A program made the position numbers and the translations under genes. A model generated the notes under the pieces. That model made no database searches. It was not told the origin of the DNA and saw only the letters and a program-made list of their open reading frames with translations. Below, piece by piece: positions 700-63,807 of a stretch of DNA of 64,000 nucleotides (its first letter is position 1; each line of letters opens with the position of its first letter). The DNA comes from Cenococcum geophilum (Eukaryota), in the NCBI GenBank assembly GCA_050273025.1, contig CP158635.1, forward strand, positions 7,564,001 to 7,628,000, given 5' to 3'.

Positions 700-2020
700 T
701 ATTACTCTTACTCTAGGTCTATACTTTAGGTTATTAATTAAATATAAAACCAGTTCTCTTTCTATTATTACTCTCGCTAGCAAGTTATAATATTAACCTT
801 AAATTCTAAGTTAATAGAGATATAGAGAATTTAATTAATATTAAGTTAAAATTTAAGTTGGTTAGAGCTATCTAATCCAATCCACAGAGCAATTAGCCGG
901 CGCTCTCTTAGATTAGCCTAATATTAATTACAGTAGCTCCATCTAGAACGCTAATGCTAATTACTTCCCCCGCTACGCAGAGCGTCTCGGCACTTATAAA
1001 TACGCAAGCTATTATATTAGAAATCACCTCCTAAATAGTCGTAACCTCTTAAACGGCTACTTTAAAAGCTTAGATAATATCTAAAATATAGGTAATAGGA
1101 CTAAGCGTTCCTAATACGCTAGTTACGCTAGCAAGGAGCCCTTTACTTATCGTTATAGCTTTAACTAGATTCCTTTTATAAACGTCCTCTATAAGCTAGC
1201 CTTTAGCTATATATTTAGTTTAAGTTAAAGCGCGTAGCGACTTACTATTCTTACTAAATAATCTTTCTATAAACATTAGAGATATTCTAAAGTTCCAATT
1301 TCTCGCATTAAATTACACCTTAATATAATTAACATTTAAGCAGCCTTATATAGCTATAAATTCATTTAATATAGATTTTATTCACTTTAATCTATTAAAT
1401 TATATTAATAATACTCTCTTTTTTCTTATCCAAAATATAAATCCCTAGTAGTTTTACTATAAGTAATATATACCTATATCCTACTGCTCTACTAAAATAG
1501 TATTTATATTAAATCCTAGAAACTAAATAGAGTAGTTTATTTAAAATATAGTAATGCCTATATTTATACTACTAAGTTTAATTTCCATAACACTAATAGC
1601 CTTATTAATTATAGCATCTCTATCTTTATTAAGTACTATATTATTAGGATTACTAGTAAGCATATCTAGCTTAGAATCTGCTTTAGATATATCTACCGCC
1701 TTACTATCTTCCACAGCCGCGTTATCTACTATAGTATTACTAAATATAGTTAACTTTATATTATCCTTAGTAGGTATATTTATCTTAGTATCTAGTTCTA
1801 TAGTATCTAATACTCTACAGTCTACTAGCCCTATTAGTTTAGGCTCTATATCTAGTATATCTTCCGTCTTTCTCTCTTTAAGTATAACTCTAATTTCTGC
1901 TATAATTATTTCACAAAGTCAAAATTCCTTAGTAATACCCTCTATTATTAGTAAAGCAATAAAACATAGGGCATTACACCAGAGTACTACAATTTTACTT
2001 ATTACAGCTATGTAGAAAAT
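700..2020 (-). pseudogene. RIP-degraded ORF relic of unknown product
   Basis: Long minus-strand frame interrupted only by TAA/TAG/TGA stops. No family recognised. Confidence 0.3.
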
Positions 2021-2957
2021 TGTCCGTACATTGTCCAGGTAGTTTATAACTATTTAACTTATTTAGAATTATATTAGTTATAGCTTAAGAATTAATTTTA
2101 GTAATAATAATCTAAATATTCGCACTAAGCAATAATTATAATGATAATTATTTATTACGTAATATTGTAACTTATATAAATACCGGCATAGTCTTGCCTT
2201 TAACTAGCTATAAAATAAAGTTTTTTTTTTTTATTTTTTTTTTATATCCGTTGTATTATACTACGTATAATACTACGCATGCAGCCTCTAGGCTATGGCG
2301 CTATAGTTCTATATACATAAATCCTTCCTAGGCAGCTTAACATGTACTAGTAGCTAAGTAGACACTCTAGCCCGTTTTTAAAATGCTAGGGGAGCTCTAG
2401 CGACTAGTGTTTTTTCGTTCTGGTATTTTGCTTACTATAGTCCAGTTTACACCAAGAAAAGGAAATCCTAGCTCTTTTATCTATTTCTGCCGTATTCTGC
2501 CGTTCCTAGAGTAGAAAAAGCGCTCTAAAAGAAAGATTTTTATTAAATAGTTTTACACTTAAGAATAAGAGGCGTTATAATAGCTTACTAGCTTGGAAGT
2601 AGCTACTAATTACCCCTAAAGCGACTTTTTATCCTATACCCTATCTCTTCTCCTTGCTAAAGAAATGGGTAGGGAATTAGTAATTAATAGGTACTCTCCC
2701 TAAAAATAACCTACTAATAGTATTTTATAAGGGCAAACCTCGTTACATAAACCCACTCCTATAGGAAAATTTTCACGAAGTTGTCTTGTATAGGGTATAA
2801 ACACCAATTCGCCTATATACCTTAGATTTAACGTGCTAAAGTAACACGGGCCGGTCCCTTCCCCTCCCCTACTATAGCCACCCCTATCTGCGCATCTGCG
2901 GTACGCCTATAGTGCGGTATTGTATGGTATGTTGTGGCGGTGGTGGCGGTTGTGGTA

Positions 2958-3551
2958 GAGGTCGTCTGCAGCGCGATGGCCGTAGACAGGTTGTGGAGGT
3001 CGTCTGCAGCGCGATGGCTGTAGACAGGTTGTGGAGGTCGTCTGCAGCGCGATGGCTGTAGACAGGTTGTGGAGAGGTCGTCTGCAGCGCGATGGCCGTA
3101 GACAGGTTGTGGAGGTCGTCTGCAGCGCGATGGCTGTAGACAGGTTGTGGAGGTCGTCTGCAGCGCGATGGCTGTAGACAGGTTGTGGAGGTCGTCTGCA
3201 GCGCGATGGCTATAGACAGGTTGTGGAGAGGTCGTCTGCAGCGCGATGGCCGTAGACAGGTTGTGGAGAGGTCGTCTGCAGCGTAATGGCCGTAGACAGG
3301 TTGTGGAGAGGTCTGCAGCGTGATGGCCGTAGACAGGTTGTGGAGAGGTCGTCTGCAGCGTGATGGCCGTAGACAGGTTGGAGAGGGGTCGTCTGCAGCG
3401 TGATGGCCGTAGACAGGTTGGAGAGGGGTCGTCTGCAGCGTGATGGCCGTAGACAGGTTGGAGAGGGGTCGTCTGCAGCGTGATGGCTGTAGACTAGTTG
3501 TGGTGGAGGTCGTCTGCAGCGTGATGGCTGTAGACTAGTTGTGGTGGAGGT
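2958..3551. repeat. Tandem minisatellite, ~38-40 bp unit gaggtcgtctgcagcgcgatggccgtagacaggttgtg, ~15 copies
   Basis: Directly visible head-to-tail repeats. Confidence 0.95.
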
Positions 3552-3601
3552 TGCGTCCGGTGACGTGTCTTTAGGGGCTATATAGCCTGCGGCGCCATAG
3601 C

Positions 3602-3818
3602 GACGACGACGGAGGAGCGAAGGGGGAGACGACGACGGAGGAGCGAAGGGGGAGACGACGACGGAGGAGCGAAGGGGGAGACGACGACGGAGGAGCGAAG
3701 GGGGAGACGACGACGGAGGAGCGAAGGGGGAGACGACGACGGAGGAGCGAAGGGGGAGACGACGACGGAGGAGCGAAGGGGGAGACGACGACGGAGGAGC
3801 GAAGGGGGAGACGACGAC
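3602..3818. repeat. Tandem minisatellite, 26-bp unit gacgacggaggagcgaagggggagac, ~8 copies
   Basis: Directly visible near-perfect repeats. Confidence 0.95.
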
Positions 3819-4408
3819 CTAAAATAAAGTTATAAATTATGGAGTAATTGACCATTATCTATTTCTTATAATAACATCTACTTAAAGCCAAACTGCGTGA
3901 TTAGTTAACCCTTCCTTTCCTAGTAATCCTCCTTCTAATCTAGCCTAGATTGTTCTAATTAGTCCACTATATTTTCTAGCCTATCTTTAGGTTTATAATA
4001 AAATAAAGCCAAAACTTAAAGTTTTAGATAATTTAAGCGTCTCTTAGCTACTAATAGATTTTAGCCTAGAAATTATAGAATATATTTGGGGTTTATAGAG
4101 GCACAAGGCATATTAAGAGCGTAAAAATAAATTTTAATTCTAGGAATTACGCTATAAGGAAAGAGATCACTATATTTAAGAAGAAGTTAATATTAAGCTA
4201 TAAAGCCAATATAAAAGTCTATACAGCAAGGACTATAATAGTTTTAAGAGTTTTATAGAAGAAACCGATATTTTAGCAATAATAGATAATTTTGTAGATT
4301 GCGCCTAAAACTAAAGACAACGTTATTAGGAAACTAATATTATATAAGGGAATATTAATTCTAACAGCCTCCTAGAGGAGACCTCCCAAGATAAGTTATC
4401 TAGCTCTA

Positions 4409-7400
4409 TGTTGGTAAAACCTAAGTAGATAGTTATATAGCCGCAAGGTACGGGCGACCCTAGGGCAACCCAGGGGTAACTCGCCCGTGAGGCACGTGCT
4501 CTGCACATGCCTAGGGAAAACCCTTCCTACCTTGTACACAGACTCCTTCTTTTCCCTTAAGGATTCGTCTCTGTCTATACAATATACCCATTATTCTATT
4601 ATTGGACTCCCTATCTACATTCTTACCTTACATTCAAATCCTTACCAATCCCCTTAAGAGGATAGCCGGTTCAATTTTTCTATAATACCTCCAAAAAGAA
4701 AACTGACGCTTATACCCGACGGTAATACGCTAGTGATACGACCGTAAAACGCCTTAGGATCTAGTGTAAATGAAACCGCTAGAAGCATACTAGCAGTATC
4801 TAAGCCATTCTCCGAATCCCAAAACAATCAGATATCTACGAACGCTGGAGATTAGTTCAACTTATATACCTAGGCTCAACAGGAGCTTAGTAAGGTTATT
4901 AGCATCCTACCTAATACCGCTGATATAAAGGAGCTAGATAAGCTGGCTAAGAAAATAGCCAACTTACGGAGCATTATCGATTTAATAAAGCCCTCCTGTT
5001 ACCTCTCTAGTAAAGAGCATAAGTTATATGGCGAACGTATACGCCGATTAAATCTCAACGCCCTAGTTAAGAAGTCACCACCTAATATTAGCAGTACTAC
5101 TTAACAACATTTTAACCGGTGGATTGCCGCAGTTAAGAACCAATTTAAGGTTAATAACGCTAACTATAATTATAAGTGACGCACGCGCTAGGCCATCGAA
5201 GGTCTTATAAAAGAGAAGACAATCACCTAACTAGTTTATCGCCGGTTAGGTACTAAGGATAAGGGTCCCTTACTATAGGACAAATTTAAGACTATAGTCC
5301 AAGACCAGATCAGGAACCCTATAGTAAGATACTTTAATAACGCTATAACATACTATATAGCTATTATAAAGGAGAACTAGAGGTTTAACGTCTTCCTAGC
5401 CTATATATATAGCTTAGAGGACCTCTTCTTATATACCCCTTTTATTAATCCTAAATAATAGGTAGACTTCTAGTTCTTATATCTTTTAGCCTACCTATAA
5501 GTAGAGCTCTTCCGCCAGAACTTCGCCTAATAGGTGAAAACCGCTAAAGACCTCTTTAACAAAATCCGCTATATAGAGTAATTGCTTAATACTATAAAGC
5601 TCGCGGAAAATCGCGTAAGTAGCAGCGGCAAATTATCGTATATGAAGCGCGGTTACAGCACAGGCTCTATAGACTTAGGCTTAGGGAACAGAACCTAAAA
5701 AGGGTAACGCTTTTCTAAGTAAACTCCTAGGGAGACCACCCAAAAGCCAGATAGCTTAGGGGACCCCCTAGACGCCAGTACTACGCAGGCGAGTTAAAGG
5801 ACCGCAGGCGGCTACTATAAGGAACACTAGAAGCAGGCTAAAGAGAAGTTAGCCCGGGCTTTAGAAAACCCAAAGCCCTAGTAGCGTATCTCTCTTAACT
5901 GTAACTAGGGCCTAATATAAAGGGAGAAAAGAAACACATTATAGTATACGTTGCGATAAATACGCCCTAGGGCGAAGTCCGCCTATATACCTTATATAAC
6001 AATAGGTGCCAAATTAACCTTATTAATTAAGACATTGTTCGTAGGTTTAACCTACCTATACACTACGCGCTACGTTTATATAAACCTATTACACGTTTCC
6101 TTAATAGCAACTAGATAACAATCTAGGATACTTATAATCTAACAGTTACCACTAGTAACTCCCAGGGTACCCCTTGCACTATTAGCCCGCAGACCTTTTA
6201 GGGCGGCTCATTTAATAATTATAATATAGTTCTTAGATAGGATTAGCTCACAGAAGCAAATTTATTAATTAGCTTCCGTTCTAGATAGTTTATTTAGGGT
6301 ACTTTAGACCCTAAACGCCTCTAGATAGTTACCCTTAACGCTTTTCTGGTAGATATTAAGGCTGGCGAAATAGTCTATTCACTATAGCCAAAAGACTCCT
6401 TCTTTACGCCGGTTATAAATATAATAGAGGACCTATTATTACTAGCAGCGAGTACCCGTATAGACCCTCCGGACGTAGAGATACCGGTTATAAACATAGT
6501 AGAGGACCTGCTATTACTAGCAGCAAGTACCCGTAGAGACCCTCTAGTACCGGCGCAGATTACCTATATATAAGGGGGAGGTAATCGAAACCCTAAAACT
6601 ATTAAGTATACTGCAGCAGAGCTATATATACTCTCTATATAAGCATACCTACGAAACACATATCGGCCGCACCCTTCTCTTCACTAGCTCCCGGAAGTAC
6701 ACTACTACATAATAGTCGCTTTAACCTCCGTGGCCCCTGGCCTACCAGATATATATAAGGAGGAAATTAATATCTTTTCTAATAAGCTAGCAAGCATACT
6801 ACCGTAGAACTCTAAGTACGACTATGCGATTAACTTAGAAGAAGGCAAGACGCCACTATAAATGCCCCTCTATAACCTCTTATAGAAAGAGTTATAAATC
6901 TTACAAGAGTACCTAGACAGTGCTTTTAAAAAGGGCTAGATTAGGCCCAGCAAGTTGCCTACTAAAGCGCCTATCCTCTTCATACCAAAAGCAGACAGTA
7001 TAATACGGCTATGCGTTAACTACAGATGCCTAAATAAGATCACGATTAAAAATTAATACCCCCTACCACTGGTTGGTAAACTCTTTAATAGGCTTAACTA
7101 TATAAAGATATTTATAAAGCTAGATCTTCGTAATGCGTACTATAGGATTCGTATCAAAAAGGAAGACGAATAGAAGACCGTATTTAAGATACGCTACGGT
7201 CACTTTAAGTACCTAGTGATGCCCTTTAGTCTTGCTAACGCCCCTACAACTTTCTAAAGCTATATTTATAAAGCTCTAGAAACCCTAGTGGATACCATTT
7301 ACATAGTCTACCTAGATAATATTCTTATCTACTTAAATAATAAGGATAAGCACGTTGAGCACGTTAAGCAGGTACTACAACAGCTCCGCGCTTGGGGCCT

Positions 7401-10400
7401 ATACGCTAAACTGTTAAAATATATCTTTTACACTAAGAACGTTGAGTTCCTAGGCTTTATTATTACCCCTAGGGGTATTATAATAGACCCTAACCACGTA
7501 AAAGCTATTAAGGAATAGCCTAAGCCTAAGTCCTATAGGGATATCTAGGTCTTCCTTAGCTTTACTAACTTCTATAGGCGATTTATCTAGAACTACTCGG
7601 ATACTGTATACCCCCTATACGCATATCTTATATAGGTATATTATAACCCAACGTTAGATAGGGAGAAGAAGAGGAAGCGTAAGTTAAAAGGGCCTACTAA
7701 ATAGTATTAACCCTAGTCCTGGCCTGATAACGTACAGTAAGCGTTCCGTAAACTACGCGCTATATTTACGCAGGCTCCTCTACTTCACCACTTTAACCCT
7801 AATCTACCCCTAATAGTAATTACTAACGCTTCTAACTATACCTATAGCGGTATACTTCTGCAGCCTTTAGGGTAGGAAAATTAACTCCACTAGCACCTAA
7901 TCGCTTATTATAGTCAGAAGCTTACTAGCCTAAAAGTACAGTATAATACACATAATAAAGAACTACTCGCTATAGTGCAATGCTTTAAGATATAGCGCTA
8001 TTACCTTAAACACGCCGCGTATGTAACGCGCGTGCTCTACGATTATAATAATCTTTAATACTTTATAACCACTAAGAGCTTATCTGCTTACTAGGCCTAG
8101 TACGCTAAGAAACTAGCTAAGTTTAATTTCGAGATTAAATATAAGCTAGGTAAAACAAATCCTACTAATATACTATCCTAGCGCCCAAATTATACCAAAG
8201 GCTTTAAAGATAGTAGTAAAAAAATACTCCTTAATGCCATACTACCTATATTATAGCAAAAGTTGCAGGTTATAAGCCTTATGGGCGGCCCTAGTGCTAC
8301 TATACTATACTAGCGAGTAGTATACGTATAGTATGCAAGTAACCCTTATAAACTTAGCGCCGGCGGACTAAAGCGTCCTACTATTCTCTTTAAGACCACT
8401 TTAACCGGCCTAATGGCGTTTAACCCTAGGGAAAACCCCTTGGCTTAGGCTACGGTCCCCTATAACGACCTAGCGAGTTACCTATACATTATATATTACT
8501 TTACTGGCACCAACTTTACGCAGAGTTTTGTGCTATAGTAAGAAGTAGTAGTAGCTGCTTTAGCTAAAACGGCGTTTACGGAACAACCCCCTAAGTTACT
8601 AGTTAATTTTATTTATAGAGTACAAAAAAGGGACGCCTTTATACGCTCTATATGTAATTAGTTAACCTAAAAATAAGTTCCCACTGGTAATAAGGACTAT
8701 ACCCTTAATAATTAAGGACTCCTAAGGTAAAATAACAAGGTCTGGGTGCTAAATTACATACTACTACAATAGGAGATCCTTAAGCGAAATTATGACGATC
8801 CTATGGGCGGCCACTATGGTTTTAACCGTACCTTTGAGGTAATCACGCGGAAGTATGCTTGAAACGGCCTTACCTAGAACCTCCGTAAATACCTAGATAA
8901 TTATAATACCTACTAACGCTCCAAATCGCGCTGCTATAAACCCTATAGTAAGCTATAGCCTCTCTAGGCCCCTACCTAAGCCTAGCGGTATTATTTACTT
9001 AACTTTATTACGGATTTCCCAGAGTCTAAGACTCCTAATAGCGTAAAGTATAACTCCATCCTTATTCTTATAGACCGTTTTATAAAGCTAGTACGCTACT
9101 ATCTAGTGTATAAGATAATTAATACTACACAACTCGCAGAACTCTTATTTAGAGTCTTTGTATAAATAGGGCCTCTAAATAATATCGTCTCTAATAAGGG
9201 TAGTGTATTTATAAGCAAGTACTAAAGCACCATATGCTACTATCTCCGCGTTTAACGTAAACTTAGCACTATATTCTACTTATAGATAGATAGGTAGACG
9301 GAGCGTTAAAACTAGGAGCTTGAGGCATACCTACATATATTTACAAACTGGGAACAGTCTAATTAGGCCTCCCTACTTAAAGAAGCAGCCTTTACCTATA
9401 ACTCTAAGGTTCATACTATAACAAAGCGTTCCCCTATTAAGCTCGCCTATAGCTAGCTACTAAACGTCCTAGACGGAGTCCTGGATAGCGTCTAAGACAT
9501 TTAGTAAGGTAGGGAGGGGTCCAAGTTAACGAATGTCTAACTTACAGAGACACACCTATAACGCCTACGCCTCATATATAAGGCAGCGGCGGCGTCAATA
9601 ATATACGCCTAAAAGCTTTAGGTAAAATACTATAATTGTCACTATCTAGCCAAGCATTTCACCGTCGGTAAACGAGTCCTGCTCTCCTCTAAGAATATTC
9701 ACATAAAACGTCCTTATAAAATGCTTAACTACAAGTTTATAGGACCGTTTCAGATCCTAGAGCGCGTAGGGCAGTAAGTATATAAGCTAGAGCTTCTACC
9801 TGCTATAGTACGGCTCCACCCAGTCTTCTATATCTCCCTACTAGAGCCTTATAGGTCACGCCCTAGGTTTTAACCCCTAGCAGTAGAAGAGCTCAAGGAA
9901 GGCAGCTGGGAAGTAGAAGTAATTATCACCTACTAGGATTATATTAAACAACCATAGTACCTTATTAAATAGCTAAGATGGCTAAATAAGTATAACGAAT
10001 AGAAATACAAGATAGAACTTAAGAATTGTTAATAACTATTGGATGAGTACCATAAGCGGGACACCCTAGCCTTATAGCTAAAGCGCAGGCGAAAAGTAAG
10101 CGCCGCTATTAAAATATAACCTATATTAAAGCGGAGTAGAGGACGTCCTAAGGGATTAAAGAATAAGCAACAACTGCTATAAGAACTGCGGCGTACGTAT
10201 AGGGTAAAGTTTTAATTTATTAATATCCTACGCCCGTTTATAACCGGGGTTTATTTAACCGGAGTCCACGACCTACTAGTAACCCGCTAGTGGTAACCTA
10301 TACTAATAACTTATACTATTCCACGTATATACTACGCAGATAATATATAAGGCTAAAGCATAGGTTAGCGGCGGATTTAACGGGTATATAGCCTTACCGT

Positions 10401-11186
10401 CCTAAACCTGGCTGCATGTAAGTAACCTATAAACCTACCCACGAAGTATATACGGCGCTACGCCGGTATAGCGTAAGGCTAAAGTAGGGTTAGCGGCGGG
10501 TTTAATAGGTATATAGCCTTACTGTCTATAAATCTGGCTGCATGCGAATAACCTATAATTAACCCGCAAGGTACTAGCGACCTGCCTATATAAGCGAGCT
10601 TTTGGAATATTTCTAGTCTACTAAATTTAGGCGATGGTATTAAGCTCCACTAGCTCTACCTATTAAATAGACTAATTAGGATTTTCTATACTAGGCATAC
10701 AAAATCGCTACTAGCTCAGTTAAATGCGGGGGAGTCTTAGTAAGGCAAATCTAACTAATTAGACAACTTTAACCGCCGGTCGAAGTTCCTTAACATCTTC
10801 GCGCCGCGCATATATACTACCCGTCTCTTTATACGCAAAATTAAGACGCTCTTTCCCCTCTAAATTTTTTCCTTACTAAGGTTTTTTATAGGGTTTTATT
10901 AAGGCTTAAGTATATGAAGGATCGGGGACGACCCTTTTTAAAAGGGGGGGCATTGTCAGGTAAAACCTAAGTAGATAGTTATATAGCCGCAAGGTACGGG
11001 CGACCCTGGGGCAACCCAGGGGTGACTCGCCCGTGAGGCACGTGCTTTGCACGTGCCTAGGGAAAACCCTTCCTACCTCGCACACAGACTCCTCCTTTTC
11101 CCTTAAGGATTCGTCTCTGTCTATACAATATACCCATTATTCTATCATTGGACTCCCTATCCACATCCTCACCTTACACTCTAACA
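4409..11186 (+). mobile_element. Ty3/Gypsy chromovirus LTR retrotransposon (Gypsy-1), RIP-inactivated
   Basis: LTR-like direct repeats ~4413-4635 and 10954-11186. PPT aaaaggggggg before 10954. RT VYLDNIL (YLDD after RIP reversion) in ORF 7288-7518, then RNase H, integrase and chromodomain WEVEVII at ~9907. The 5' boundary is uncertain. Confidence 0.92.
10320..10558 (+). repeat. ~115-bp tandem duplication in the Gypsy-1 3' UTR
   Basis: Two copies of ...aaggctaaag..ggttagcggcgg..tttaa..ggtatatagcctta..ctggctgcatg..taacctataa. Confidence 0.85.
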
Positions 11187-12026
11187 ATAACGGTATAACA
11201 GCGTATTAGTACTTTAAGGTATTAGTCTTTATATATTTATAATTTATTATAGGGCTTATAATACTACAGATACTAAGGTTAAACTTTAATCTTAGTACGA
11301 TTATATATTATATTACAACTCTAAGCCGTCTTTACACTCTAAGAGAGACTTATTATTATAGGATTCACGATTATAAACCCCAAACTACCATTTATTATCT
11401 AACTATACTAAATATCGCGTGTAACTATACAGAAAGATACTTTATAAATAGCTACTTTAACGCTAAATCTCCTAAGGCGCCCATATATATACAAGTAAGG
11501 TTTCGCTACGCTTTATAGGCCCTTAAGCTAAAGCTATATATCTACTTTACCTTAGTACCTCTAAGTCTCTTAATAGGCTTATTAAGAAAACTATAGTTAT
11601 ACCTTAAAAAATCTTAAGATTTAGACCCCTATTATATATATTACTTCAAAAACAAGTTAGAATTTCGCAGTAAGTTATATATAGCAATAAATGGTACTTT
11701 TATTTTAATATTATTATAATAACGCTAAGAATAAGATATAGGACTTAAAATAACTTCTTAGCTAAAGCCTTTACTTCTAATCTTAGACCTAGTGCAAAAT
11801 AGTCTCTATAAAATAGCTTATAGAAGGCATCTGGTATAGAAGGTTAAAATTTATAAAGAGGAAGATTCTCCCTAATTTATAATTAAGCTATCTTACTTTA
11901 ACCCTTTTACTATTATAGTATCCCATAGAAGGTTTTAATTGTTATTATTATTAAAATTCTCTAATATAATCTCTCTAAATCTATTTAGTTAAATATAATC
12001 TTTATTACGGCATTAACCTAACGTGT

Positions 12027-12187
12027 TGTTATAGCTACGCGTATACATAAGCACGGACCTAACCCTTAAGCAACACGTATATATACCTACCTCGTCTCCT
12101 ATACATAGATCCTTACACAATATCGTTTGTTAATAATATACAGTCACCTCATACCTCGTACCTTGACAGTTGGCACGTACTATAACA
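12027..12187. mobile_element. Possible solo LTR
   Basis: tgttatag...ctataaca inverted ends and TATA-like core. Flanks (cgtgt/atctt) do not form a TSD. Confidence 0.4.
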
Positions 12188-13310
12188 ATCTTAGCGTCTA
12201 TAAACGCGCCGTATTTAAATCTACGACTAAACTCAGTATATTGGTAAAGGAGAAGACTTTTATTAATTAGAAGTCGGTGCGCTAATTATAAGAAATAAAT
12301 AAGGACTCTATCTATTAAGTATAGCTTTAGGGCCTCTATATATATATAAGAAAGGTATAGAAAAATAGGAAATAAGGGGAAGGTAATTAAGTTAATAGCT
12401 AAATTAACGGGCAGGTAGCTAAGTTAGGGTAATAAGATAACCTAATTTAGGTTAACAACTTCTTAGACTTAGGGCAATTATACTATTAAATAAGCGTATT
12501 CTAGCATCTCTCTTTTCCGCCTATATAGACGCATTCTAATATAAGGTTAGTTTATACACTAGTTAAAGAGAAGTAAGTTTAACTATCTGCTTTTACTAAT
12601 TTATCCCGCTAGATATAGTGAACTATCCTTATAGTTGCGCTAGCAATTAAAAATAATACTATAGAGTAACAATTCTATCCAACTCCCTTATTCTCTTATT
12701 AACTTATATCTACTAAAGGCACCACCTAATTTAGTCCCTAGTCCTCCCCTAACGGCGTCCTTATAAAATTACGCTGCCCTAATTAGTTTATAGAAAGACT
12801 AGCACTATCTAATCTTTATTTAGTATCCAGATAATACCCGCATACATTAGGAAATTTTTTTTGGGGCTCGTTGTTGCGGCAGGTGGATATAGTTGATAGC
12901 AATTTGCGCAAAACGCACGTTTTATAACAAGTTTGCAGCACCCTAATAGCAATTTGCGCGTTTTATAATAAATTTGCAGCACCTAATAGCAAATTGCGGT
13001 AAAATGCTACCCTATAAATAAATAGTGCGCAAACTGTACGAATTATACGAATTGTACGAATTGTAAAAACTGTACGAATTGTACGAATTGTACGAATTGT
13101 ACGAATTGTAAAAACTGTACAAATTGTAAAAACTGTACAAATTGTAACTATATAAATTATAATTATATTATATAATAACCAAATTATTACATATTTCCAT
13201 AGATTTCTATAGTATACTTTTAAATATATTTATATTATAACTATATAAAATGTAGAGCTATCTACTTTAGGCGTTAAGGGGAAGCCTCTTACGGAGGCTC
13301 TAAATTATCT

Positions 13311-39409: not shown

Positions 39410-39453
<44 letters not shown>

Positions 39454-49000: not shown

Positions 49001-49003
49001 ACA
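43023..49003 (+). mobile_element. Ty1/Copia LTR retrotransposon (Copia-A), RIP-inactivated
   Basis: 219-bp LTRs 43023-43241 and 48785-49003. TSD atata. Domain order: knuckle KCFVCGKEG (44951), protease IIDIGA (~45370), integrase RRFGHP (~45818), RT (~47160-47580), RNase H VFIDASF (~48038). Confidence 0.95.
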
Positions 49004-49078
49004 ATATATAATAGTTATTTATAATTAGTACAAAACTCTAACTATTTTAATCTAAGTTTTAAAATATAATCTAGCGCC

Positions 49079-49480
49079 TATAACGGCTCGTATAAATACC
49101 TCTAAGGTAAAGCTTATAGATTGCTATAATACAAATATACTAAGCTAAGAAGAAGAAAAAAAAAAGGAGAAGGTTGTTAAAGGTAGCGTTACAGCTTAAA
49201 TAAATGCCTCTAAAGTAAAGCCTAAACGAATGCTATATTATAAAAATACTAAGCTAAGAAAAAGAAAAGGGGTATTTTAGGGCCGACGTAAATAAATATA
49301 TAGGCTAACCGCCAAGGCGCTAGTTGGTAGAATATGGCAGTATTATGGCAGAATTTGGCAAGTAACGCCCCCCTAGTACTATTATAGGTAGTATAATTAA
49401 ATATTTTAAGACGCTAGTCGTAAGCGAGCTAATAGTAAAATAACGGAATATAGCAGAAATACGGTCCTAGCGCCGCCACA
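49079..49480 (-). mobile_element. Solo LTR interrupted by a related solo LTR
   Basis: tataacggc...gccgccaca with TSD gcgcc/gcgct. Confidence 0.8.
49187..49386 (-). mobile_element. Solo LTR (same family as 29130-29352)
   Basis: TSD ggtag at 49182-49186 and 49387-49391. Its reverse complement aligns with 29130-29352. Confidence 0.88.
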
Positions 49481-49893
49481 GCGCTATCTAGTTAGGATTC
49501 CACCTAATTAAAGTAAAGCCTTTATTTAGTCCAACTTTATACCTTATACTTCTAAGTTTTATTAGGAGTTACTAGTTATAAAGTCTAGATTTTTAATCTC
49601 CTGCTATAACTATAGTAAGCCGCATAACACAATAGTGAAATTTAATTTACAATATAAATTAACTAAATTATACTTAAACTTGACTAGTAAAATAGTTTTA
49701 TAACCCTAAATAAATTATCACTATAACGCTACTATATAGTAGGAACGTGCACATTTATAAAAGCTTTCAACTTATATATTACTAGCTATCTCTATTCTTA
49801 TATTATACGTATATAAAATTGAATTATATAATACTATAAATTAATCCTCCTCTTACTAGCCTTAAATAGTTATAGTACAGCATCTATTATACA

Positions 49894-51500: not shown

Positions 51501-51589
51501 CTAGTAGCCTTTAGTTTTAAAGTCTTAGAGATAGAAGACACCTATAGCGCTTACTAATAACCCTATTGGCCTTTAGTCTAATTAGTAGG

Positions 51590-52230
51590 TTCTCTGCACG
51601 AAGTTCTACACGAGGCTCTGCACGAAGTTCTACACGAAGCTCTGCACGAAGCTCTGCACGAAGCTCTGCACGAAGCTCTGCACGAAGCTCTGCACGAGGC
51701 TCTACACAAGGCTCTACATAAAGCTCTGCGTACAGAGGCTCTGCACAAGGCTCTGCGCGAAGCTCTGCGTACGGAGGCTCTACACGAAGCTCTGCGTACG
51801 GAGGCTCTACACGAAGCTCCGCATCGGGTCCCCGCTATATTCCCGATAGCCTCTACACGTGCCTCTGCCAAGTATACCCCCTATATACACCTAGGTAGCC
51901 ACATCATTTTTTACCCTTCCTTACATCCTCCCTACCTAGGAAGACACCAGAACGACAGCCAGCAGACGACCGTCGCCGGAGCTAGACGACCGTCAGAGCC
52001 AGACGACCGTCGTCAGAGCTAGACGACCGTCGCCGGAGCCAGATGACCGTCGCCAGAGCTAGACGACCGTCGTCATCGCCACACGACCGTCGCCAGAGCC
52101 ACACGACAACCGTTCGAACGACCAGCCAGCGAACACGATAAACGATTCGATCAATCGATCGAATTAAGGTGACATAGACAGGTAGGCACAGACAGGTAGG
52201 CACAGATAGGTAGGCATAGACAGATAGACA

Positions 52231-52272: not shown

Positions 52273-52742
52273 TAGGCAGGCAGGTAGAAGAGAACCGTCG
52301 CTATATATTAAATTATCTAAAATAATATAATTTATTTTGCACTAACTGTATAAACTAAGTAAATACTATTAAGTGTATAGGAAGAGCAAGATATATAAAA
52401 TGCGCGAAGAGGGCATTATATATAGAATATATAAGGAGGGCATTATATATTAATTGCGCATTAAGTGCAAAATGCGTAATTAGCTGCACTGTATTATTAA
52501 ATATAGCAGTATGCCGCACTATATTATTAAATATAGTAATATACCGCACTACATTATTAAATATAGCAGTATGCCGCACTATATTGTTAAATGCAGCAGT
52601 ATACCGCACTGCATTGTTAAATACAGCAGTATGCCGCACCTTAGTTAATACTATACGCTACACATTATAGTGCGCAGAATGCGCATTTGGCCGCCAAATG
52701 CTGCCAAATGCTGCAAAAATGCTAGTAAATTTTTTCCTAACG
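51590..52742 (-). mobile_element. CATCAGG-family element, copy 3, truncated at one end
   Basis: Reverse-oriented core (tgcacgaagctc)n, linker, (gacgaccgtcgccagag)n, (GGCA)n. 30-bp arm repeats 52490-52640. End aaattttttcctaacg|ta. Confidence 0.8.
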
Positions 52743-53190
52743 TATATATTAATTTTATTATTATTTAGCAGATCCTTATTATATCTATCCTTCTATAAAA
52801 GTAACCCGGGCGTTATTACTATAATACGGTACGTAAAGTAGGTGCTTAAGGAGGTACCGGCTATTTATACTAGTTGGTTCCCCTTAGGAGAACTATCTTC
52901 CTTTTATTTAACTATTTTCTGCTAAAGTACCTTTTCTATTTCTAACACTATTGCACTTTTTATACCCTATAGTAATTTAATTTCTATAGTTTTATACTTA
53001 TAGTTTAGGTAGTAAATTTAGAGCTTACCTGAAATAACTTTTAATTCTCTTTTATTAAAGCCGATAGTATTTAAGGTATGGCGAATTTTAAAGTTTATAA
53101 GTATTTCTCCGCTAACCTAAACTAATTCTTTATATACTATAGACTGTAAGACCCCTTTAGGGTTACTCTTTCCTTATTTTAAAAAATAAC

Positions 53191-56100
53191 TGTTTATACT
53201 AATTTAATAATACAATTGAGTTATATCCCGGGGCACAAAATACGTATAATATCGTATGCTCTTTAGGATGGTGGTAACTATTAATTGTATAAAGTAGACT
53301 ATATGGTCTATATACTAATGCACCTCCCCCCTAATTAGTTAGTGCTTTATAAGTGCACCAGACGCGTAAGCGGGTGGTTAGTGCACTGGACGCGTAAATA
53401 CGTACCTGGTGTACCGAACGCGTAAGCACGCAGTTAGTATAATAGGTGCTATAATTATACACTAGCGGTACTTAAAAAAAATGAAACCATAAAACATAAA
53501 GGAAAATATATAGGAAATCTCCCCCGAGGTGCTGTCTAGGCTGCCTTCTAAGCGGTGCCCTAAACTAGCCGTAAGTTCTGCTTACGGTCCGTAAAATAAA
53601 CCGTATAGCCTTTTGACGGGCAGTAGACGAGCTATAAGTTAGATCTTAAGGGCCGCTAAGGCGCTAGTGCTAAGCGAGCTAATGGCGATTTTCTATCCCA
53701 GGGATGGAAAATTATAATTGGTTGATTTAACTACCCTGGTAGAAAATGGCAGAATTTAGCAGGTTATGTAAGTCCATTAAGTTCCATTGCAGCTTTCTAC
53801 CGTTCTCTACCTAATAGCTTATAGTCCGTAGAATAGGCCGTATAATAAGCCGTACGGCCTTCTAACGGGCCGTAGGCGTACCATAGGTACTCCGTTAGTC
53901 CCGTTCTACCTATTTTATAACTTTTAGGTTGAGCTTATTTGTGTTAATTAGGGTTTTAAGGGCTTAATATGGCTTTGCCTTAGTTATAGCGTCCGCTAAG
54001 TTATCTCCACTACTAATCTATTTAACTTCTGTAATCTTACGTTGTTTATAGGCCTAATATAAGCACATTAGGTTGACTATAAGCCTCTTTTCTTATGTTA
54101 TACCTAGTTTAACTAGGCAGTTGTAAAGGGATTTTAAATCGGTGTATAAAACTAGGGGTAACTGCTCTAGTTATAGAATCTTCTAAACCGTTAATTTAAT
54201 TACGGCTGCTATATTAAATTTATAAGCTAGTATATATAGTTTAGAAGCTAGTACACTACGGGTTACTTATTTGCACTTAATTAAAGACCAGTATAGTATA
54301 TTTGCGTCCTAATTACGGTCTATAAGTACAATTATAAAGCTAATTTGTAATAATAGGTCTTTGTTATTAGTAAAGGAGGCGCCCGTAAATGCTAGTAGGC
54401 TAAGGGAATTTAGGTCTAGTAGTATAAAAGTAAGCCCCCTTGCCGTATTATTAATTTACTACTAAATGCGCTTATTAAGCTGTTTAATATTTTCTTCTTA
54501 TAGGTCTATTACCTGGGCCGTAAAGGATAAATTGTAGGTAGATTTAGGTTAATAGACTATAGCAATATAGGCGCCTCTTACACGCTGTGTAGCGTATTAG
54601 TCCTTTATATTTATGGTCTTACGGGTCTCTCTATAGGAACTGGTAAGGTCCGTAGGCTTTGCTATAATAGGCTTTAGGTTTTAAGCTTAGCGTTCCTAAG
54701 TTAGCTTAATTAGGTTACCCTTTTATATAATTAGGCCTCTATTAAACTTAATTAGATTCTACTTAGTTAACTGCTCTTACGGCTTTACTAAGAACTTAGC
54801 CTTTTATAGTTTAGTTTCTTTAGCGTTTATAAAGGTTTAGTTTGCTAGAAATAGGGTATTATCTATTTAAAGTCTAACAATATTAAGGCCATTTAATGGG
54901 CTGTATAGGAGGTAGGGGTTATAGGTCAACTGTTCTATTTTAAGTTTACTAACGTAGTGCTGGTGATATATCTTAAACTAATGGTTTCTAGCTTCTAGTA
55001 CTCCGTAAAGAGGTTTTATAACCTATAAAATTGTTCCTAATTATAGGTTAAGCTCGTGGGGTGGTCGTATAAAGATGTCCCTACTTAGGTAGATGTTGGA
55101 TTATACGTAGGCTTATAAGATATTCCGTAAGTAAAGGGCTATAGGTTTAATTTGCTATAATCTAGGCGTAAGTATAAGTATAATCCATTAACTAACCCGT
55201 TAAATTATAGGTAATTGTATAAGGACTAAGTTCTTTCCCTAGTCGTTATAAGCTTATATAATAAGCCTTAATTTTTTAAAGGCTTTATTAGTACTAGGGT
55301 GCTTAATTTTGTTAATAAAGCGTAAGTTAAATATACAGACGTCTTGCGGAACGTCTCTCTCTATTATAACCGCAAAGACGCCCTTTTTAAGTAGTCCGTT
55401 AATCTCTTTACGTTATAAGTCCGTAAATAGGGTTTCCTATACTAGAACTAATATATCCGTAGGCGAAGATTGCCTTACGGATATTCCTACGGAGGTTAAG
55501 TAATTCTTTGTTATAGGGTTCTTAGTTATAGGGTGCTTTTAGGGGCGTCCTTAACCGCGCTTTATAGTAGGTTTAGTAGGTTCTATAGGTTTCTGGGGGA
55601 CTTTTAGGGTAGGTAAGGGTGCTTCTAGTTTATTTAATTCGGCAGTCGCTTCTAGTTTATTTGGTTCGGCGTTATAGGTATTTTTAGGCCGAAAGTAGGG
55701 TTTTACAGATGTGCTTCTAAAGCTAGTTAGCCCACTAGGAAGCTGTACGTAGCACGTCTTGTTTTCTACGGCTAGTAAACAGTAAGGTCCAGTCTAATTG
55801 CCGCTTTTACGCTATATAAGAACTTTAGAGTTAAGCGGAAGGTCGTATACTAAGGTTATATTAGGTCCGTTACGGTAGTATAAGGAGTTATTAATAGTTT
55901 GTTTAGCCCGTAATTTGACTATTTTAACTATTACCTTTTATATTATAGCTGCTTATTCCGTAATAGACGGGGCAGAAAGGCCTAGGTTGCTTATCCTTAA
56001 ATAGGCTCTATAAACTAAGAGGGTAGGTACTAGTCCGTTAGGGCTAGTAGTATTATTAACGGCTTTTACGGCTATCTATAAAGCTAGTTCTTTTTAAATA

Positions 56101-59100
56101 TCCTTATACTCGTCCATAATAATCTAGTAGGCTCTCTATAAAGCTAGGTAAGCTCGCTTAATAAGCCTAATAGACTAATGCGCCTTAACTAGAACGGCTT
56201 TTGTTAAAATAGCTATGGCCGTAGTATACTATTGGAATTCCTTGCTAATAAAGTTCCTACCGGCGTTGTGGGTAATATACTTAGGGGGTCTAACGTATGT
56301 GTTAATCTAGCAGGTCCGTAAAATATCCTAAGTATATTTTGTAGATATATTTTATAACTAATGGGCGGCTTAATAGCGGGTTGCCTCGTTAATTATGTGT
56401 AATACTAGGCTGCCGTTAATATATATAATGTCTACGTATACTAAGTAGTTAAAATTAAGGTTTTTATAAAGGGTAAACTTAAATCGGCCTAGGGAACGTC
56501 TGTATTTCTAGCAAAAGGAGTAGTATTTGGTTAGGTGGTTAATTGCCTTCCTGTTAATATTGTCGTGTCTAGAGCGTTTAAGGACTCTATATAGCTTTTC
56601 GGCTAATAGGTGGCTAAAACGGCAGTATAGGCGGTAGATTTTAGTACTAGTAAGATAGCACGGGTTATAGTCGAAAGATTCCTAAATATAGGTCTATAAA
56701 GTCTTTCCCTATATAAGGAACGGGTGTCTAAATTGTTGTGTAATTGGTAGGGTAATATACTTGCTTTTTAGGGCAGTTGTGGGGCCGATTAAAGTGTTTA
56801 TAACATTATTATAGTAAACCTATAACCTATCTATGTCCATAAAATAAAGTAAGAAAGGGGTGTCTGCTTTTACTATATGGAAGTTAACTAGGCTAATTAG
56901 GGTTTTAACTATAACTAATTTAATTAATGCAGTTAAGCTAATGCTAAATTGGACGTTTATAGCCCTAGTTTATATAGTATTAATGTCCGTATTATTATTT
57001 GCGGTAGTCCTATATATAAGGTATTGTCCGTAACCTATAGTAGACTTCTTAGAGGCACTTATGTCGATTATAACACCGTAGAATTTCTTAGGGGTATAGC
57101 GTTCTGTGGTTTTATATGCAAATAGGTCCTACTTATAGTCTATAATGTTTATAACGGGGGTGCTTATAGAATAGTTTTTGGGCGTAATTGAGTGTATAAA
57201 GGAACGGTTGGCTAATACGGTCGTAATATTAAAGGCTTAGCTGTCCGTAAAAGGTCTAAAAGTGGTTAGGAATGTCTCTAAGGTCTCTTATTCCTAAGTG
57301 TTTAAGTTAAAGTTAATTATAAGGGCTTCTATTAACTTATTAGGGGGCTCTTCTACTTCCTTTCCTTCGTATTCTAAAATAAACTAGTTAATATAGCTAT
57401 TAAGTCTCTTCCTAGACTTGTTACGTTCTTCCTAGGTATGCTTTATAGACTAATATCCTTCCTTACCGTATATAAAGCACTTCTGGCTGGTTTGTCTATG
57501 GGGGTATATTTTTATATGGGTGTTGCTATGGTGGTTATAGGTAGGACTTAGTCGGTACGGGTGCTGCTAGCGGTAGCGGCGGTCCGTAAAGTAGACGTCT
57601 AAGTCTATTTACGGATATTAAATATCCGTAATAAAGGCTTAAGTGCTACCTGGTGGGTTTAAGACTTTATACGTTATAATAGAGAAGCGTAGGTTATTAA
57701 TAAGGCTAGCTAAGGTATCTGTAGGCTTATAGTAGGCGTACTTGCAGGGCTTTACTTCTTAGTAGGCCGTAATAAGTTTATTATATAGGAAGTCGTCTGT
57801 TTAAAGCTTAGCGTTAAGGCCGTGCTATAGGTGCTAAAGGTCTTTAATAAGAATTTATAGGCACTCTATAGTCAATTTTTTAGTATTCTTGTTGATTACG
57901 GTCCGTAGCTTAGTCGCATTCTATTAGGTAAGAATATTACGCTTATATTCCGGTCCTTTAAAGTAGTTATAGGTAGCTTTGTATAGCTTATTAAAGGGAA
58001 CACCAAGGGGGTTACTCTTAAGGTTGGTGTAGTAGTGGTTAAGTGCTAGGCCGCGCAGTATAGTAGAGTAGGCTTGGCTAAACTCTTATTTAGGAATATT
58101 AGCCTTTTAGCAAAGGTCCGTAAAGATAGTTAGTTTAAAGTTAAAGTTATCGTTTTCACCGCTGTACTTAGATTTATTGGTGTAGAGCTTAGCTAGGTTA
58201 GCTAGTTCCTTACTATAGGTCTTTACTTAGGTGGGTTGCGGATCTATAACTTATAGATCTGTGGTTTGCGGATATATAGCTTACAGATCTATAACTTAAG
58301 TAATAGAAGGGGTTTGTTCCGTATTTTGGTTTATAGGGGTATTATAGTCCGTAATTTGGGTTATGGTGGTATTATGGTCCGTAACTTAAGTATTAGGTGT
58401 ACTTTAGCTAGTAAAATTAATTCTAATACTACTTAGGTTTGTAGAACGGATTTGGTTAAATAGGTTAGCTATAAGGCTAGAGATTCTGTTAAGTTTAAAG
58501 GAGGTAAAGAGGTCGCTAGTTTTAATATGATCTAAGATTTACTCTTTAGTCTATTCTATTTGGTCCTCCTTACGTAGTGTGTTGTATAGAGACCGTACAA
58601 CATTAACTTGTTTGTCCCTTTTAACCTATATACCTTGGTAATATAAAAGGGTTTGTAGGTTACGGATAGCAGTAGGGTTGCAAGCCTTAAAAATAGCTTC
58701 TGTGAAGTCCGTAAAGTCTTCCTTATATTACTCCCATAGGTTGTTATTTATAAGCTTAAAATATCTATATTTAAGGATTTTATATTTAATATAGTTATTA
58801 ACGTTAGGTATAGACGTAAGGTTAACTCCTTAGCTCTATTTCTCTTAACCTTTATTAATCTGCTTGCTTATGTCTGCTATGCTATATAGTATAGTATATA
58901 GCGGGCGGAAAAGGTCTTATAGTGGTCCGTAAAGGCGGTTAATAGGTCCATAACGGTTTATAGGAGGATAAGGGGTTTCCATAAGGTCCAAAGAGGTTTA
59001 AGGTTTAAGGGGGTTAAGGATAAAGGTTTCTATAAAGGTTTATATTCGCGTTTATAACTTCCGGTAAACCGTATTAAGACTTAAATAAGTATATAGAGTT

Positions 59101-59505
59101 GGTAATAGGTCTATAATCCCCGACTTCTAACCTTCTAGTAGGTTATACTAGGAGTTTAAATAGGTGGTTACTGTTAAGTATCGCTTGGGGGGAGGTGTTA
59201 AGTAATTGCTAATCTGTGCGCGCTTACTAATTAGTGTTTATATTAATTTAATAATATAATTAAGTTATATCCCGGGGCACGAAATACGTATAGTATCGTA
59301 TGCTCTTTGGGATAGTGGTAACTGTCGATTGTATGAAGCAAACTACGTGATCTATATACTGATGTACCTCCACCCTAATTAGTTAGTGCTTTATAAGTGC
59401 ACCAGACGCGTAAGCGGGTGGTTAGTGCACTGGACGCGTAAATGCGTACCTAGTGTACTAAACGCGTAAGCACGCGGTTGGTATAATAGGTGCTGTAATT
59501 ATACA
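53191..59505 (-). mobile_element. Ty1/Copia LTR retrotransposon (Copia-B, same family as Copia-A)
   Basis: 271-bp LTRs 53191-53461 and 59235-59505. TSD ataac. Interior is the reverse complement of Copia-A apart from transitions and small indels. Confidence 0.95.
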
Positions 59506-59510
59506 ATAAC

Positions 59511-61830
59511 TCTATAGCTTTACTATTTTTTTTAACTTTAACGGACGTGTATTTTTTAAGAATGTTATTATTTTAGGCGCTTACCTAATCTAGATTTAAA
59601 AGGCTACTTATAATAAACTAATATATATTTATAATACTATTCTTTATTATAGTCCCTAATATAGCCTAAACAAAGAATCTAAGGCGTTTTAGTATAGTAC
59701 TTTTATAGAAATAAAGAAATTGGCTAACTATAGTCTCTTTATTCTTCTTATTATAAAACTTATTCTATAAAACCCTACTAAAAAACATAGTCTTAACCAA
59801 CTGCTAACCTTTATCCTCTTACTTACCGTTAAATAAGAAGTAGTAGACGCTTCTAGTAATTATAAAGTTGTTAATAATACGCTGTTTTAGGTATTTAGAT
59901 ATTATAATTATAATAAATCTTATTACTAAGGCAGCCCAGGTACTAACTAAAGGATTACCCTTTTAAGTAGTAGGACACTATTGGAGAACTATAGGTAAGG
60001 GGTTTTTACTTTATCTGTAAGAGCTTAATAAGTATTTAAAGTATTATAGGCGGTCTAGTTTCCTAACATTTTTATTTTTAGCTACTTATTTAAAGTCGGC
60101 TGCTCTATACCTAGAGAAGCATCTACTATTAAATAGTATATTATAACTCTTAGTGGTGCTTACGCTTGCGTTATAAGTGGTAAGTCTTTAAATAATAAGA
60201 TATAATTATCTCTTTAGGTAGTAATAATATGTAGAACTATAATAACTAGGCTAACACTATACTGTTTACGTATTATAGATATAGCGTTATAATTTACGCA
60301 CGAGTATAGTAGAGGTACTTTATCCTAGCTAGGATACTTAACGTTATTAGCCTAGTAGCCCTCCGGTAAATATTAAGTAGCATTTTTAGCCGCTTAATTA
60401 GTAGCTACTTTATCTAGGTTTATAGTATAGTAGTAGTTAAGGATAATAGTTAAGTATACGGTTACTATTTTACCGGTCCCTATACTGTCTACAAAAACCC
60501 TACTATTTAGCTCTATACGTTCCTAGTAGAATATCTTAAATATACTATATAGCTAGTATAGGAACGCTCTAAACTCCAGATTTAAACCCTATTTATAGGG
60601 AACGGAGACTATCTTATTCCCTAGGAGGGCCCCTTTAGAAACCCCCTATAGCTTAGCTAAGCGTTTATATATTTACTACTCTATTCTCTTAACCTTGCCA
60701 CCTACTTTTACTATAGCGGCTTTTTAAAATCCAAAATAAGCTAACATTAGTCTAATTTAAGATGTACTCTATATACTTATATACCTATACTTTTACTTAA
60801 TATAATTAGCAGCCTCTACCTCCCTATTGGCTTCGTTTATTATATCTTTAAGGGCCTCTTCTTTTAGGTTATTGTCTTCTGTAGAAACCTATATGGTATT
60901 ACTAGCTAAATCGTCTACGGTTATAACCTATAGTTAAGCTAGTTTGGGATCTAGAGCGGTTGCGCTTTAGAGAGCATTATAATTGTCTTTATTCTCCTCT
61001 ATACTACTAGGACCCCCTATAGGCTAGATAGCTAGACTACCGCGGCCGTCCTTAGTAGCTTGCTATAATTTGCCTTTAGATACTCTAGCAGGTTACTTCC
61101 TTTTATAACTACGTTTCTTCTAACCTAATAAACTTAGAATGCTATTATACGCTAATAGGGTTAATAAAGCATTGCTCTTACTTTTAGTATCTTTATTAAC
61201 AAACTTATTATTTAAGTACTCTAAGTACTTATGGGTCTGCTTAGACGCAGTCTTCTACCGTTTTTTATATATAGGATTACTGCGTAAAGACTAGCAAATT
61301 AGGGTATTAGCAATACTGGCAGGGTTTATACTCTACTTATATGGTATTTAGTACAGTATTTCTATAATTAAATACTTAGCTGTAATTATTAGTATATAGA
61401 TAGCCAGATGTTATTAAAAGAACTTATAATTGGTACTCTTAAGTATAAATTCTACTTTACTTTTATAGTATAGTATATATCGCTAGAATGCGGCTTATAA
61501 TACCCCTTACTAGGCAATATAAGCCTTCTTATAGGATTTAATATTAACCTATATAATTTAATCTTTATCTAAGTTAAACTCTATTAATACTATAACCTCT
61601 TAAAATAGCAAAAAACTAATTTCTTTAAAGCAATAATAGTATCTTTAGACTAGCTCTCTAAAATACCTTCCCTTTTAGGTAAGTTACTAAGAACCTTTTA
61701 AATAAAGTTATTGCGTAGTACTTTATCTTTAGTAGTATAAAATGCGATTTTATTAAGCCTGGCTTCTACTATACTATCTAAGATTGTCTTTTTAATTTCC
61801 TTAAGGCTACGAGTATTAATTTCCCATCTA
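59511..61830 (-). pseudogene. SNF2-family ATPase/helicase-like RIP pseudogene (possibly continues 52745-53185)
   Basis: 60466-60504 reads SRVFVDSIGTGKI, reverting to GGVFADGMGTGKT (SNF2 motif I). LRSL*I (Q-motif-like) upstream and LTTY downstream. Tentative NKIY>DEIH at ~59913 in another frame. Confidence 0.65.
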
Positions 61831-63807
61831 TTTATAATATCTAAGTCCTTTATAGTAATGCGTAAAGATATTAAGATAGGATAAAGGAGAAGTAGAGTGT
61901 TATAATATAAGAGCGAAAGAATCTAGTTAGTGTTTAGTAAAAGTGTAAGTTTAAAGTAGGTAGGTAAGACAAACTAATTATAAGAATTAATTAACTAGGT
62001 AAATTACCGCAGTTCTAGGGTATAAGTTACAGCTTAAAGCAGTAATTAGCGGTTAAACTAATTAATTAACTAATTAATGTCGCGTAGAGGTGCCATACGA
62101 GAGTTAGTTAAGGTAGTAGAGGTAAAGAGTTAGGCGAAGTAGATATTAAAGTTAAGTACTCCTATAGAAACGCTAGTAGGTAAATTGCTGTTATCTAATA
62201 CTTATTAATAGTAAGGTAAATTAAGAAGTTCTAGTAAATACGCAGCATGCTAAGTTTAGCGGCATTTTACGGTAGATTGCCTTAGGTAGTATAAGTTTTA
62301 TATAGTTATAATCTTTAGGATTTAAGAACTAAACTAACTTATTAGTTTATTAAACCTTATAAATCCTACCTAGACTACTAATATAAAAAGGTAATAACTT
62401 AGCTAAGTATAGAATTTATATATTGTTTTTAATTATATTTTAATAGGAGACTAAGTAAAGCTAATTGAGCCTTTACTATAGCCTCCTTTAAGCCCCCCTT
62501 TACCGCCCTTAATTAATCCTCTATATTAAACAGCCGCTAGTTAAACCGTCTAATTACTTATAGGACTTAATACACCTTATTTAGCGTATATAGTATATCC
62601 TCCCTTATAACCTTAAGCTAGTCCTTTACTAAAAGCTTTTAAAATATTACCTTTTTTTAATTTATATTATGCGCTTTAGTTATAAATATAGTTTTATAAC
62701 CTTAGAGATAATCCTGCTTTATTACTTAGGCGTCCTAAATTAGATTAATAATAGATATATTTTAAGCCTTTTTAGCTTTTTAAAGTTCCTTAATTTCTGC
62801 CTTTAAACTCTCTATTTTAGTAATTAGAGGGTAATACAGTCTATAAAGCATCCTATTCCTCCTTTTTATAACTAATTATCTAACTTACAATATTAAAGAG
62901 GTCCCTCTTTATAGTTTTTTTAGTTTCTATAATAGCCATCTCCGCGGCGCTATTTTTATTTAACTTAGTTCTCTTTAAAGTATATATAGCGGCATTTTTA
63001 GCGGCTGGTAGGATAGAATAGGTTAGTAAAGGCTTCTTAATAGATAGCTAAGCTATCTTCGTGGCTTTAGCTACCTTACTATTCTTCTCCTACTTAATTA
63101 GAAACCCTCTAATCTCCTTTTAGTAACTATCCACCGCTTTCTTCTTTCGCGACTTTAGAGCTAGCTTAGTGGTCCTATCTCTATTCTTTAGTAACGCCTT
63201 TTTAATATAGGGACGCTTAGTGCGCTTAGTTAGGTAGCTGCATACCTAGGGTTTTTATTTATCTATAATAACCGATTAGCGTAAAATATCTATAACTCTT
63301 TCTTAGCATATATACTATTACGATATTTACTTTAAAAATAGGTTAAGGGCTGGTATATAGTTAAGTTAAGGGGAAATTAGTTCTAATATAAAGAGTAGGT
63401 AATAGATAGATGGATAGTATTTAGCAGTAGGATCTAAAAGGGAAGCTTATCCTTATTAACGTTAAGAACGCATATAAAGTAGATAGGTAGTAGTAATTTA
63501 GGGGAAGACTTTAATAAAGGATTATTTTATATAATTAGTAGCTAGTTAATAGAGGAAGGCTAGAAACCTATAGTTATAATATTATATATTATAACATTTT
63601 GCCTAACTTCCTCAAATATACATATAGGTGGTGGCCTTCTATAGCATTTTGTCGGCATTATAAGTTAACGCGTTTTAGTAAGGCTTACTAATAAAATTAC
63701 GCTAGCTAGGGTGCCCGTAGTATACTAACCTAGGTAAAAGCGTCTAAAGCGCCTAATATAAAAAGTATTTTTTACTAAATAAAGGGATATAGAGCTTAAA
63801 GCTCCTT

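Follow-up and report, generated by a model that had tools for sequence, protein, structure and literature searches.

The window, a 64,000-nt stretch of contig C1 of the Cenococcum geophilum genome, consists almost throughout of RIP-type DNA, in which transposons are interleaved with broken genes of cellular type. This raises the question of what kind of DNA carried these genes. An earlier note, made from the sequence alone, had proposed a fossil multi-gene cassette, once multi-copy as a segmental duplication, an accessory chromosome or cargo of a giant element such as a Starship. We conclude with high confidence that positions 617-51594 derive from one copy of a giant Starship, of which they form a remnant lacking the captain. 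This Starship exceeds 159 kb, has a Hephaestus-type TTAC(N7)A target and has a captain known from its sister copies; the fossil itself is a known kind of element. Among the proposed origins, Starship cargo is thus supported, while neither a segmental duplication nor an accessory chromosome is needed.

Backbone, later insertions and sister copies

Excision of ten insertions from the window leaves 19,803 nt, in agreement with the ~19 kb claimed by the earlier note. However, these 19.8 kb do not form a single cassette, as they comprise the Starship backbone and part of an unrelated Plavaka transposon. The segments are:

617-2222, minus: Starship backbone, ORF without assignment (~755-1909); colinear copies on C4, C5 and C7
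2223-3819: later insertion of a high-copy repeat that ends in poly-T and holds tandem arrays; target-site duplication (TSD) of 12 nt; non-LTR-like by eye
3820-4408: Starship backbone, colinear in sister copies
4409-11184, plus: later LTR element, 5-nt TSD
11185-12844: Starship backbone without assigned family
12845-15433: later non-autonomous TIR element with Plavaka-element termini, TA duplication and tandem arrays
15434-18107, minus: Starship backbone, RIP-broken SAM methyltransferase (PF08241; main exon ~16180-17217); five long copies
18108-28112: later LTR element, 5-nt TSD
28113-31536: Starship backbone, RIP-broken NF-YA (~28674-28823, plus) and MADS-like piece (~29602-29673, minus)
29972-30118: small TIR insertion within the backbone, TA duplication
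31537-40997: later LTR element with nested repeats, 5-nt TSD
40998-43022: Starship backbone without assigned family
43023-49008, plus: later LTR element, target duplication ambiguous
49009-51594, minus: Starship backbone, RIP-broken cytochrome P450 (49873-51594)
51595-52290: truncated relative of the tandem-array TIR element, joining the backbone without a terminus
52740-64000: part of a 21-kb Plavaka TIR transposon, lacking the first 1.8 kb and extending beyond the window end
53185-59508, minus: later LTR element splitting the SNF2 gene

Seven insertions were aligned against the empty site in the sister copy on C5, and clear duplications were seen in 6 of the 7, as expected from the earlier description of TSD-bounded insertions. 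A 220-nt repeat occurs twice in the backbone (29121-29355 and 49184-49395) and at dozens of positions across the genome. Within the LTR element at 31537-40997 sits a less mutated piece of a Plavaka element (35216-35638), which is 66-70% similar to 63834-63947 and to other Plavaka copies.

We searched the window's own genome (178 Mb, seven contigs, C1 to C7) with four backbone pieces and scored the best 40 candidates for each, so that the locus counts are lower bounds. The multi-copy origin proposed before was borne out: six further colinear backbone copies lie on four other contigs (C4:19.59M, C5:10.23M, C6:7.81M, C6:11.95M, C7:4.78M and, partly, C5:7.06M). With the window's own, this gives at least seven colinear copies on five contigs and in both orientations. 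The sister copies are 84-91% identical to the window backbone; the query 1-4400 found only C4, C5 and C7 among the matches listed. In the C5 copy, the pieces of 617-51594 follow each other almost contiguously within 15 kb, and 13.4 kb of this interval matches. Between the C4 and C5 copies, colinearity extends through 24 blocks with 125,985 aligned nt (C5:10171001-10330000), those at C7 and C6:11.95M are also colinear over long parts, and the C5 copy spans at least 159 kb including nested transposons.

Transversion distances between the copies range from 0.11 to 1.6%. Comparison of the window with C5 revealed 1,229 transitions and 102 transversions in 13,258 nt, with CpA as the main context in both directions. 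As C/G is kept in one copy where the other has T/A, and reciprocally, RIP acted independently on these copies after copying. Unmutated GC-rich islands lie within or beside Starship copies (C7:4770001-4776000 and C6:11921001-11927000) and are possibly later single-copy cargo or host genes.

Captain end and the break at 51594

Several features of a Starship are present in the element: an inward-facing DUF3435 captain as first gene in sister copies, a length of at least 159 kb with cellular cargo, and a shared end with unlike flanks. Homology breaks off sharply at C5:10171061, behind TTAC, and a broken, inward-facing DUF3435 tyrosine-recombinase gene lies ~0.6 kb inside this end. The domain scores above the Pfam cut-off in sister copies (E 5.5e-12 and 5.6e-11), and a 746-aa protein annotated from Zopfia rhizophila, which is intact and carries no captain-family label, could be aligned over its residues 16-745 at 46% identity. 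The common end is found with unlike flanks at 8 of the 9 captain loci examined, the ninth being truncated, and the C4 and C5 flanks differ outside the TTAC. Each of the eight ends reads TTAC, then seven bases, then A. Four captain ends are located 53-60 kb from the P450 of sister copies in the expected orientation, the link between captain and backbone at C5:7.06M and C6:11.95M resting partly on position and orientation. Captain ends of the C6:7.81M and C7:4.78M copies were not found among the best 40 of 229 candidates. As stated in the earlier note, no DUF3435 captain was recognised in the window itself; this holds for the backbone stretches scanned, and no nearby match is among the candidates scored in the genome searches.

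The empty site was read by proxy, from 13 uninserted copies of the repeat that flanks the C5 end. Ten of these 13 have an unbroken TTAC and 12 an A at +8, the seven-mer between them being A-rich, which places the crossover at TTAC and gives TTAC(N7)A as the target. The predicted far-end motif is absent from the loci examined, and the far end lies beyond C5:10330000.

The window's own copy reaches leftwards at least as far as C1:7501407, which lies 62 kb outside the window, and ends at 51594; on the left side it resumes (C1:7513042 to 7501407) after ~24 kb of insertions. At 51594, the backbone meets tandem repeats of a small TIR element without a TIR terminus, and the P450, cut by this break, lacks ~124 nt at its start. 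Some 60 kb from the captain side are absent from the 50 kb right of the window. Near C1:7.6-7.9M, no match was obtained either with the captain (best 40 of 229 candidates) or with the captain-side backbone (best 40 of 57). Deletion is the simplest reading of this loss and would have passed through the small TIR element. That the captain side was spared, and either sits at a distance of over 50 kb to the right or was displaced in a rearrangement, is unlikely: the left part of the copy does resume past its ~24 kb of insertions, and two captain loci on C1 (2.62M and 14.84M) have no known cargo, but neither region searched to the right gave a match among the candidates scored, and a junction lacking a TIR end is what a deletion would leave.

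We also considered that the copies may be segmental duplications or pieces of an accessory chromosome, copied without captain action. Some of them are partial and abut unmutated GC-rich DNA (C6:7.82M and C7:4.77M), and the element is seen from its captain end only. However, an end that is identical to the base stands behind TTAC at eight loci, whose flanks outside are unlike and which have the captain inside, and the copies are scattered over five contigs in both orientations, which makes copying of this kind highly improbable. For the Starship, published Hephaestus work points to a course in which the captain would have cut the element out in circular form and inserted it anew at TTAC(N7)A sites. 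With several copies in one nucleus, RIP would then have destroyed captain and cargo alike, and later transposons (LTR and TIR) would have accumulated in what was by then dead DNA.

The captain is also represented, with numerous transition variants, on contigs of three other isolates (three studies), where the depth drops several-fold at its edge. One RNA run gave 14 reads on the captain, none of them 95% alike.

Cargo genes and the Plavaka transposon

A Pfam scan in which stops were read as X gave 4 hits among 48 frame translations. It supports the methyltransferase, NF-YA and P450 identities given by the earlier note: Methyltransf_11 (~16570-16863, minus strand; E 1e-4), NF-YA (plus strand; E 1.6e-8) and P450 (minus strand; E 7e-9). 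The SRF/MADS piece is weak (E 0.011, under the cut-off). The methyltransferase and NF-YA are indeed divergent, roughly 1 kb apart after excision, with start codons unmapped. Outside the backbone copies there are at least eight RIP-damaged methyltransferase relatives (75-80% identity), perhaps cargo of related elements. The four of these paralogues that were compared are all RIP-damaged (~4-6% transversions), hence no intact donor was found among these four.

The backbone ORFs without assignment, in the window and in C5, had no Pfam match. The ORF at 755-1375, searched as a four-copy alignment, had no match among 8,000 candidates, and against 1.84 billion proteins it found three short unnamed fragments only. 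In the small parts of the C5-copy cargo scanned, we detected weak BTB and GNAT matches, while the usual, though not obligatory, Starship auxiliary genes (DUF3723, ferric reductase, patatin and NLR) were unconfirmed; patatin-like and kinase-like motifs are seen by eye in this cargo, the former without a Pfam match.

The fourth named gene, the SNF2-like ATPase, is present, but it belongs to a separate 21-kb Plavaka transposon and not to the backbone. The Pfam scan of the window frames and a motif search both missed it, and a PDB search with its alignment reached a best E of 0.35. A seven-copy alignment matched an SNF2-domain (PF00176) protein at 65% identity, and mapping from this protein places the gene on the minus strand at 60672-59519 and 53191-52697. 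Sequence 59510-64000 matches about 30 other loci, none of them beside a backbone copy (best 33 of 507 candidates). The copy on C6 (16184701-16205703) spans ~21 kb between inverted termini, which begin with CATCA, and codes for a Plavaka transposase (PF18759, E 1.4e-22 and 4.1e-19) as well as DUF6532; in other copies and at the right end the termini are RIP-altered. The Plavaka part of the window (~52740-64000) has no counterpart within the 100 kb of the C5 Starship copy that were compared. The SNF2 gene is therefore cargo of an unrelated Plavaka transposon. A single cassette that includes the ATPase, as its position beside the P450 after removal of the insertions would suggest, is scarcely credible, since the gene sits in an element with inverted termini and a transposase of its own and the sister copies carry other sequence beyond 51594; for the C5, C4, C6 and C7 copies this arrangement is refuted.

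The element resembles PlavakaB, for which the available text of PMC12730594 gives termini CATCA..TGATG and a 2-3 nt target duplication: both have a Plavaka transposase and CATCA termini (CATTA after RIP), and a TA duplication was seen here, only for the non-autonomous copy at 12845-15433. It differs from PlavakaB in being ~21 kb long with SNF2 modules and DUF6532, and 'SNF2' does not occur in the main text of that paper, as far as available.

The cellular-type genes were described in the earlier note as mutated as heavily as the transposons. Consistently, the backbone (GC 0.29, TpA/ApT 1.59, (CpA+TpG)/(ApC+GpT) 0.43) carries a load that matches the four LTR elements (GC 0.34-0.40, TpA/ApT 1.85-1.91, (CpA+TpG)/(ApC+GpT) 0.38-0.49). 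The note had named single-copy genes and a mutation density decaying from each transposon as evidence against its proposal; we found multi-copy genes and a density of 0.27-0.31 in six successive 200-nt bins from the insertions (0.298, 0.283, 0.265, 0.312, 0.292 and 0.309). Leakage of RIP from adjacent transposons into single-copy host genes, for which the shortness of the window's backbone pieces (0.2-2.6 kb, hence all near an insertion) might speak, deserves practically no credence, being refuted by the copy searches (seven copies) and the distance bins (no decay), and a nearly insertion-free 15-kb stretch of C5 is just as heavily mutated (GC 0.28-0.35).

At C4:12392624-12394660, in surroundings of normal composition (GC 0.45-0.52), lies a P450 that is unmutated, has open exons and is perhaps of CYP52 type. 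Compared with it, the window P450 shows 284 C/G-to-T/A changes, 31 in reverse and 34 transversions in 1,733 nt; only ~2 kb around the gene are homologous. This transversion distance of 2% is larger than most distances between the copies, which indicates that the two genes split before amplification. The near-twin suggests capture of a host gene: the cargo P450 would have been taken from the chromosomal gene before amplification, both this direction and the core status of the C4 gene being putative. With an unmutated P450 only 2% transversions away from the cargo copies, the locus offers a close view of gene capture. The C4 gene survived though six or more cargo copies are RIP-damaged. The PDB matches of the P450 are distant CYP4/CYP97 structures.

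Variable spacer and comparison with known Starships

The seven-base spacer between TTAC and A moves along with the element. Among the eight ends, its bases 1-2 and 7 are fixed, while 38 transversions in 84 pair-sites (0.45) are seen at bases 3-5, although these pair-sites are not independent and come from eight dead ends. The next 68 nt show 7 transversions in 1,904 pair-sites (0.004), and the value is 0.011 over 373 aligned columns; the excess at bases 3-5 over neighbouring DNA is thus ~40- to 100-fold. C4 and C5 have only 0.11% transversions over 10 kb, yet they differ at all three of these bases. These values (0.45 versus 0.004-0.011) are at odds with a spacer evolving in step with the remaining element. 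Nor does a spacer always taken from the local target fit C5, whose spacer is found in none of the 13 empty-site proxies (12 read AAA and one TAA).

Coupling sequences are known from Tn916. We tentatively propose that TTAC-targeting captains may recombine across a mismatched overlap, so that each hop could leave a few bases from a previous target in the element. This proposal has against it the invariance of bases 1-2 and 7 and the small, non-independent sample, read at captain ends only, as well as the footprint-free excision of Hephaestus reported in PMC10104507, as far as its text is available. Error-prone repair at the junction could give the same spacer pattern. IntDOT of CTnDOT, according to the available part of PMC2817482, requires matching bases only where the first cleavage occurs and accepts mismatches elsewhere in the overlap. 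It is thus a tyrosine recombinase whose mismatch tolerance would explain a variable spacer; IntDOT is bacterial and its tolerance was shown biochemically, whereas ours is deduced from eight dead ends. Our literature search found no account of the variable spacer, on which supplements of Starship papers may bear. Variation at bases 3-5 is not mentioned for Hephaestus in the available parts of PMC10104507, PMC11162782 and 10.64898/2026.09.21.753150. On the mismatched-overlap reading, the variable spacer makes a testable prediction on captain strand exchange, and the many dead ends record junction sequence over successive hops.

Judged from target and end sequence, the element is Hephaestus-like. 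Hephaestus, whose target is TTAC(N7)A in the available text of PMC10104507, likewise has an inward-facing DUF3435 captain at its 5' end and a crossover at TTAC. Its circle junction is published (10.64898/2026.09.21.753150), and, in the part of that source at hand, the end we describe (TTAC, seven bases, A, then a G-rich arm) matches that junction. Duplicated copies are also struck by RIP in both, PMC10104507 reporting, in its accessible sections, destruction of duplicated Starships in crosses. Unlike Hephaestus, every copy seen here is dead and the cargo is another one, with at least seven cargo copies and eight captain ends in this one genome; Starships are described as low-copy in the available text of PMC11162782. 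Derelict regions of Macrophomina phaseolina (10.1101/2021.12.13.472469, seen in part) are similar in that Starship cargo without a DUF3435 gene is alike among copies. In contrast to these, sisters in the same genome retain a broken captain and end here, which allows the parent element to be recognised. With its length of more than 159 kb, this Starship reached at least seven copies before RIP killed it, and giant elements thus contributed to genome bulk. In the available text of PMC12910237, on a large RIP-rich ascomycete genome, 'starship' occurs only in the reference list.

The genome holds at least 165 DUF3435 matches; a family search that listed 150 of these 165 (100 of 341 candidates scored) did not include the captains of this Starship family. 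The loci C6:9655464 and C4:23562890 share only the captain (~3.1 kb) with C5 and then diverge, which shows that cargo differs within the family. DUF3435 matches near C7:10.44M and C6:11.93M lie outside the shared sequence and were therefore not accepted as captains of this element. A second captain relic, 5'-only and 80-83% identical, is found inside three copies (C5:10310973-10312440, C4:19498773-19499791 and C6:12075317-12076555). A nearly intact DUF3435 gene of another family is present at C3:7969165-7970527, with one stop in its first match and none in its second, and a stop-free DUF3435 match lies at C6:8404499-8405095.
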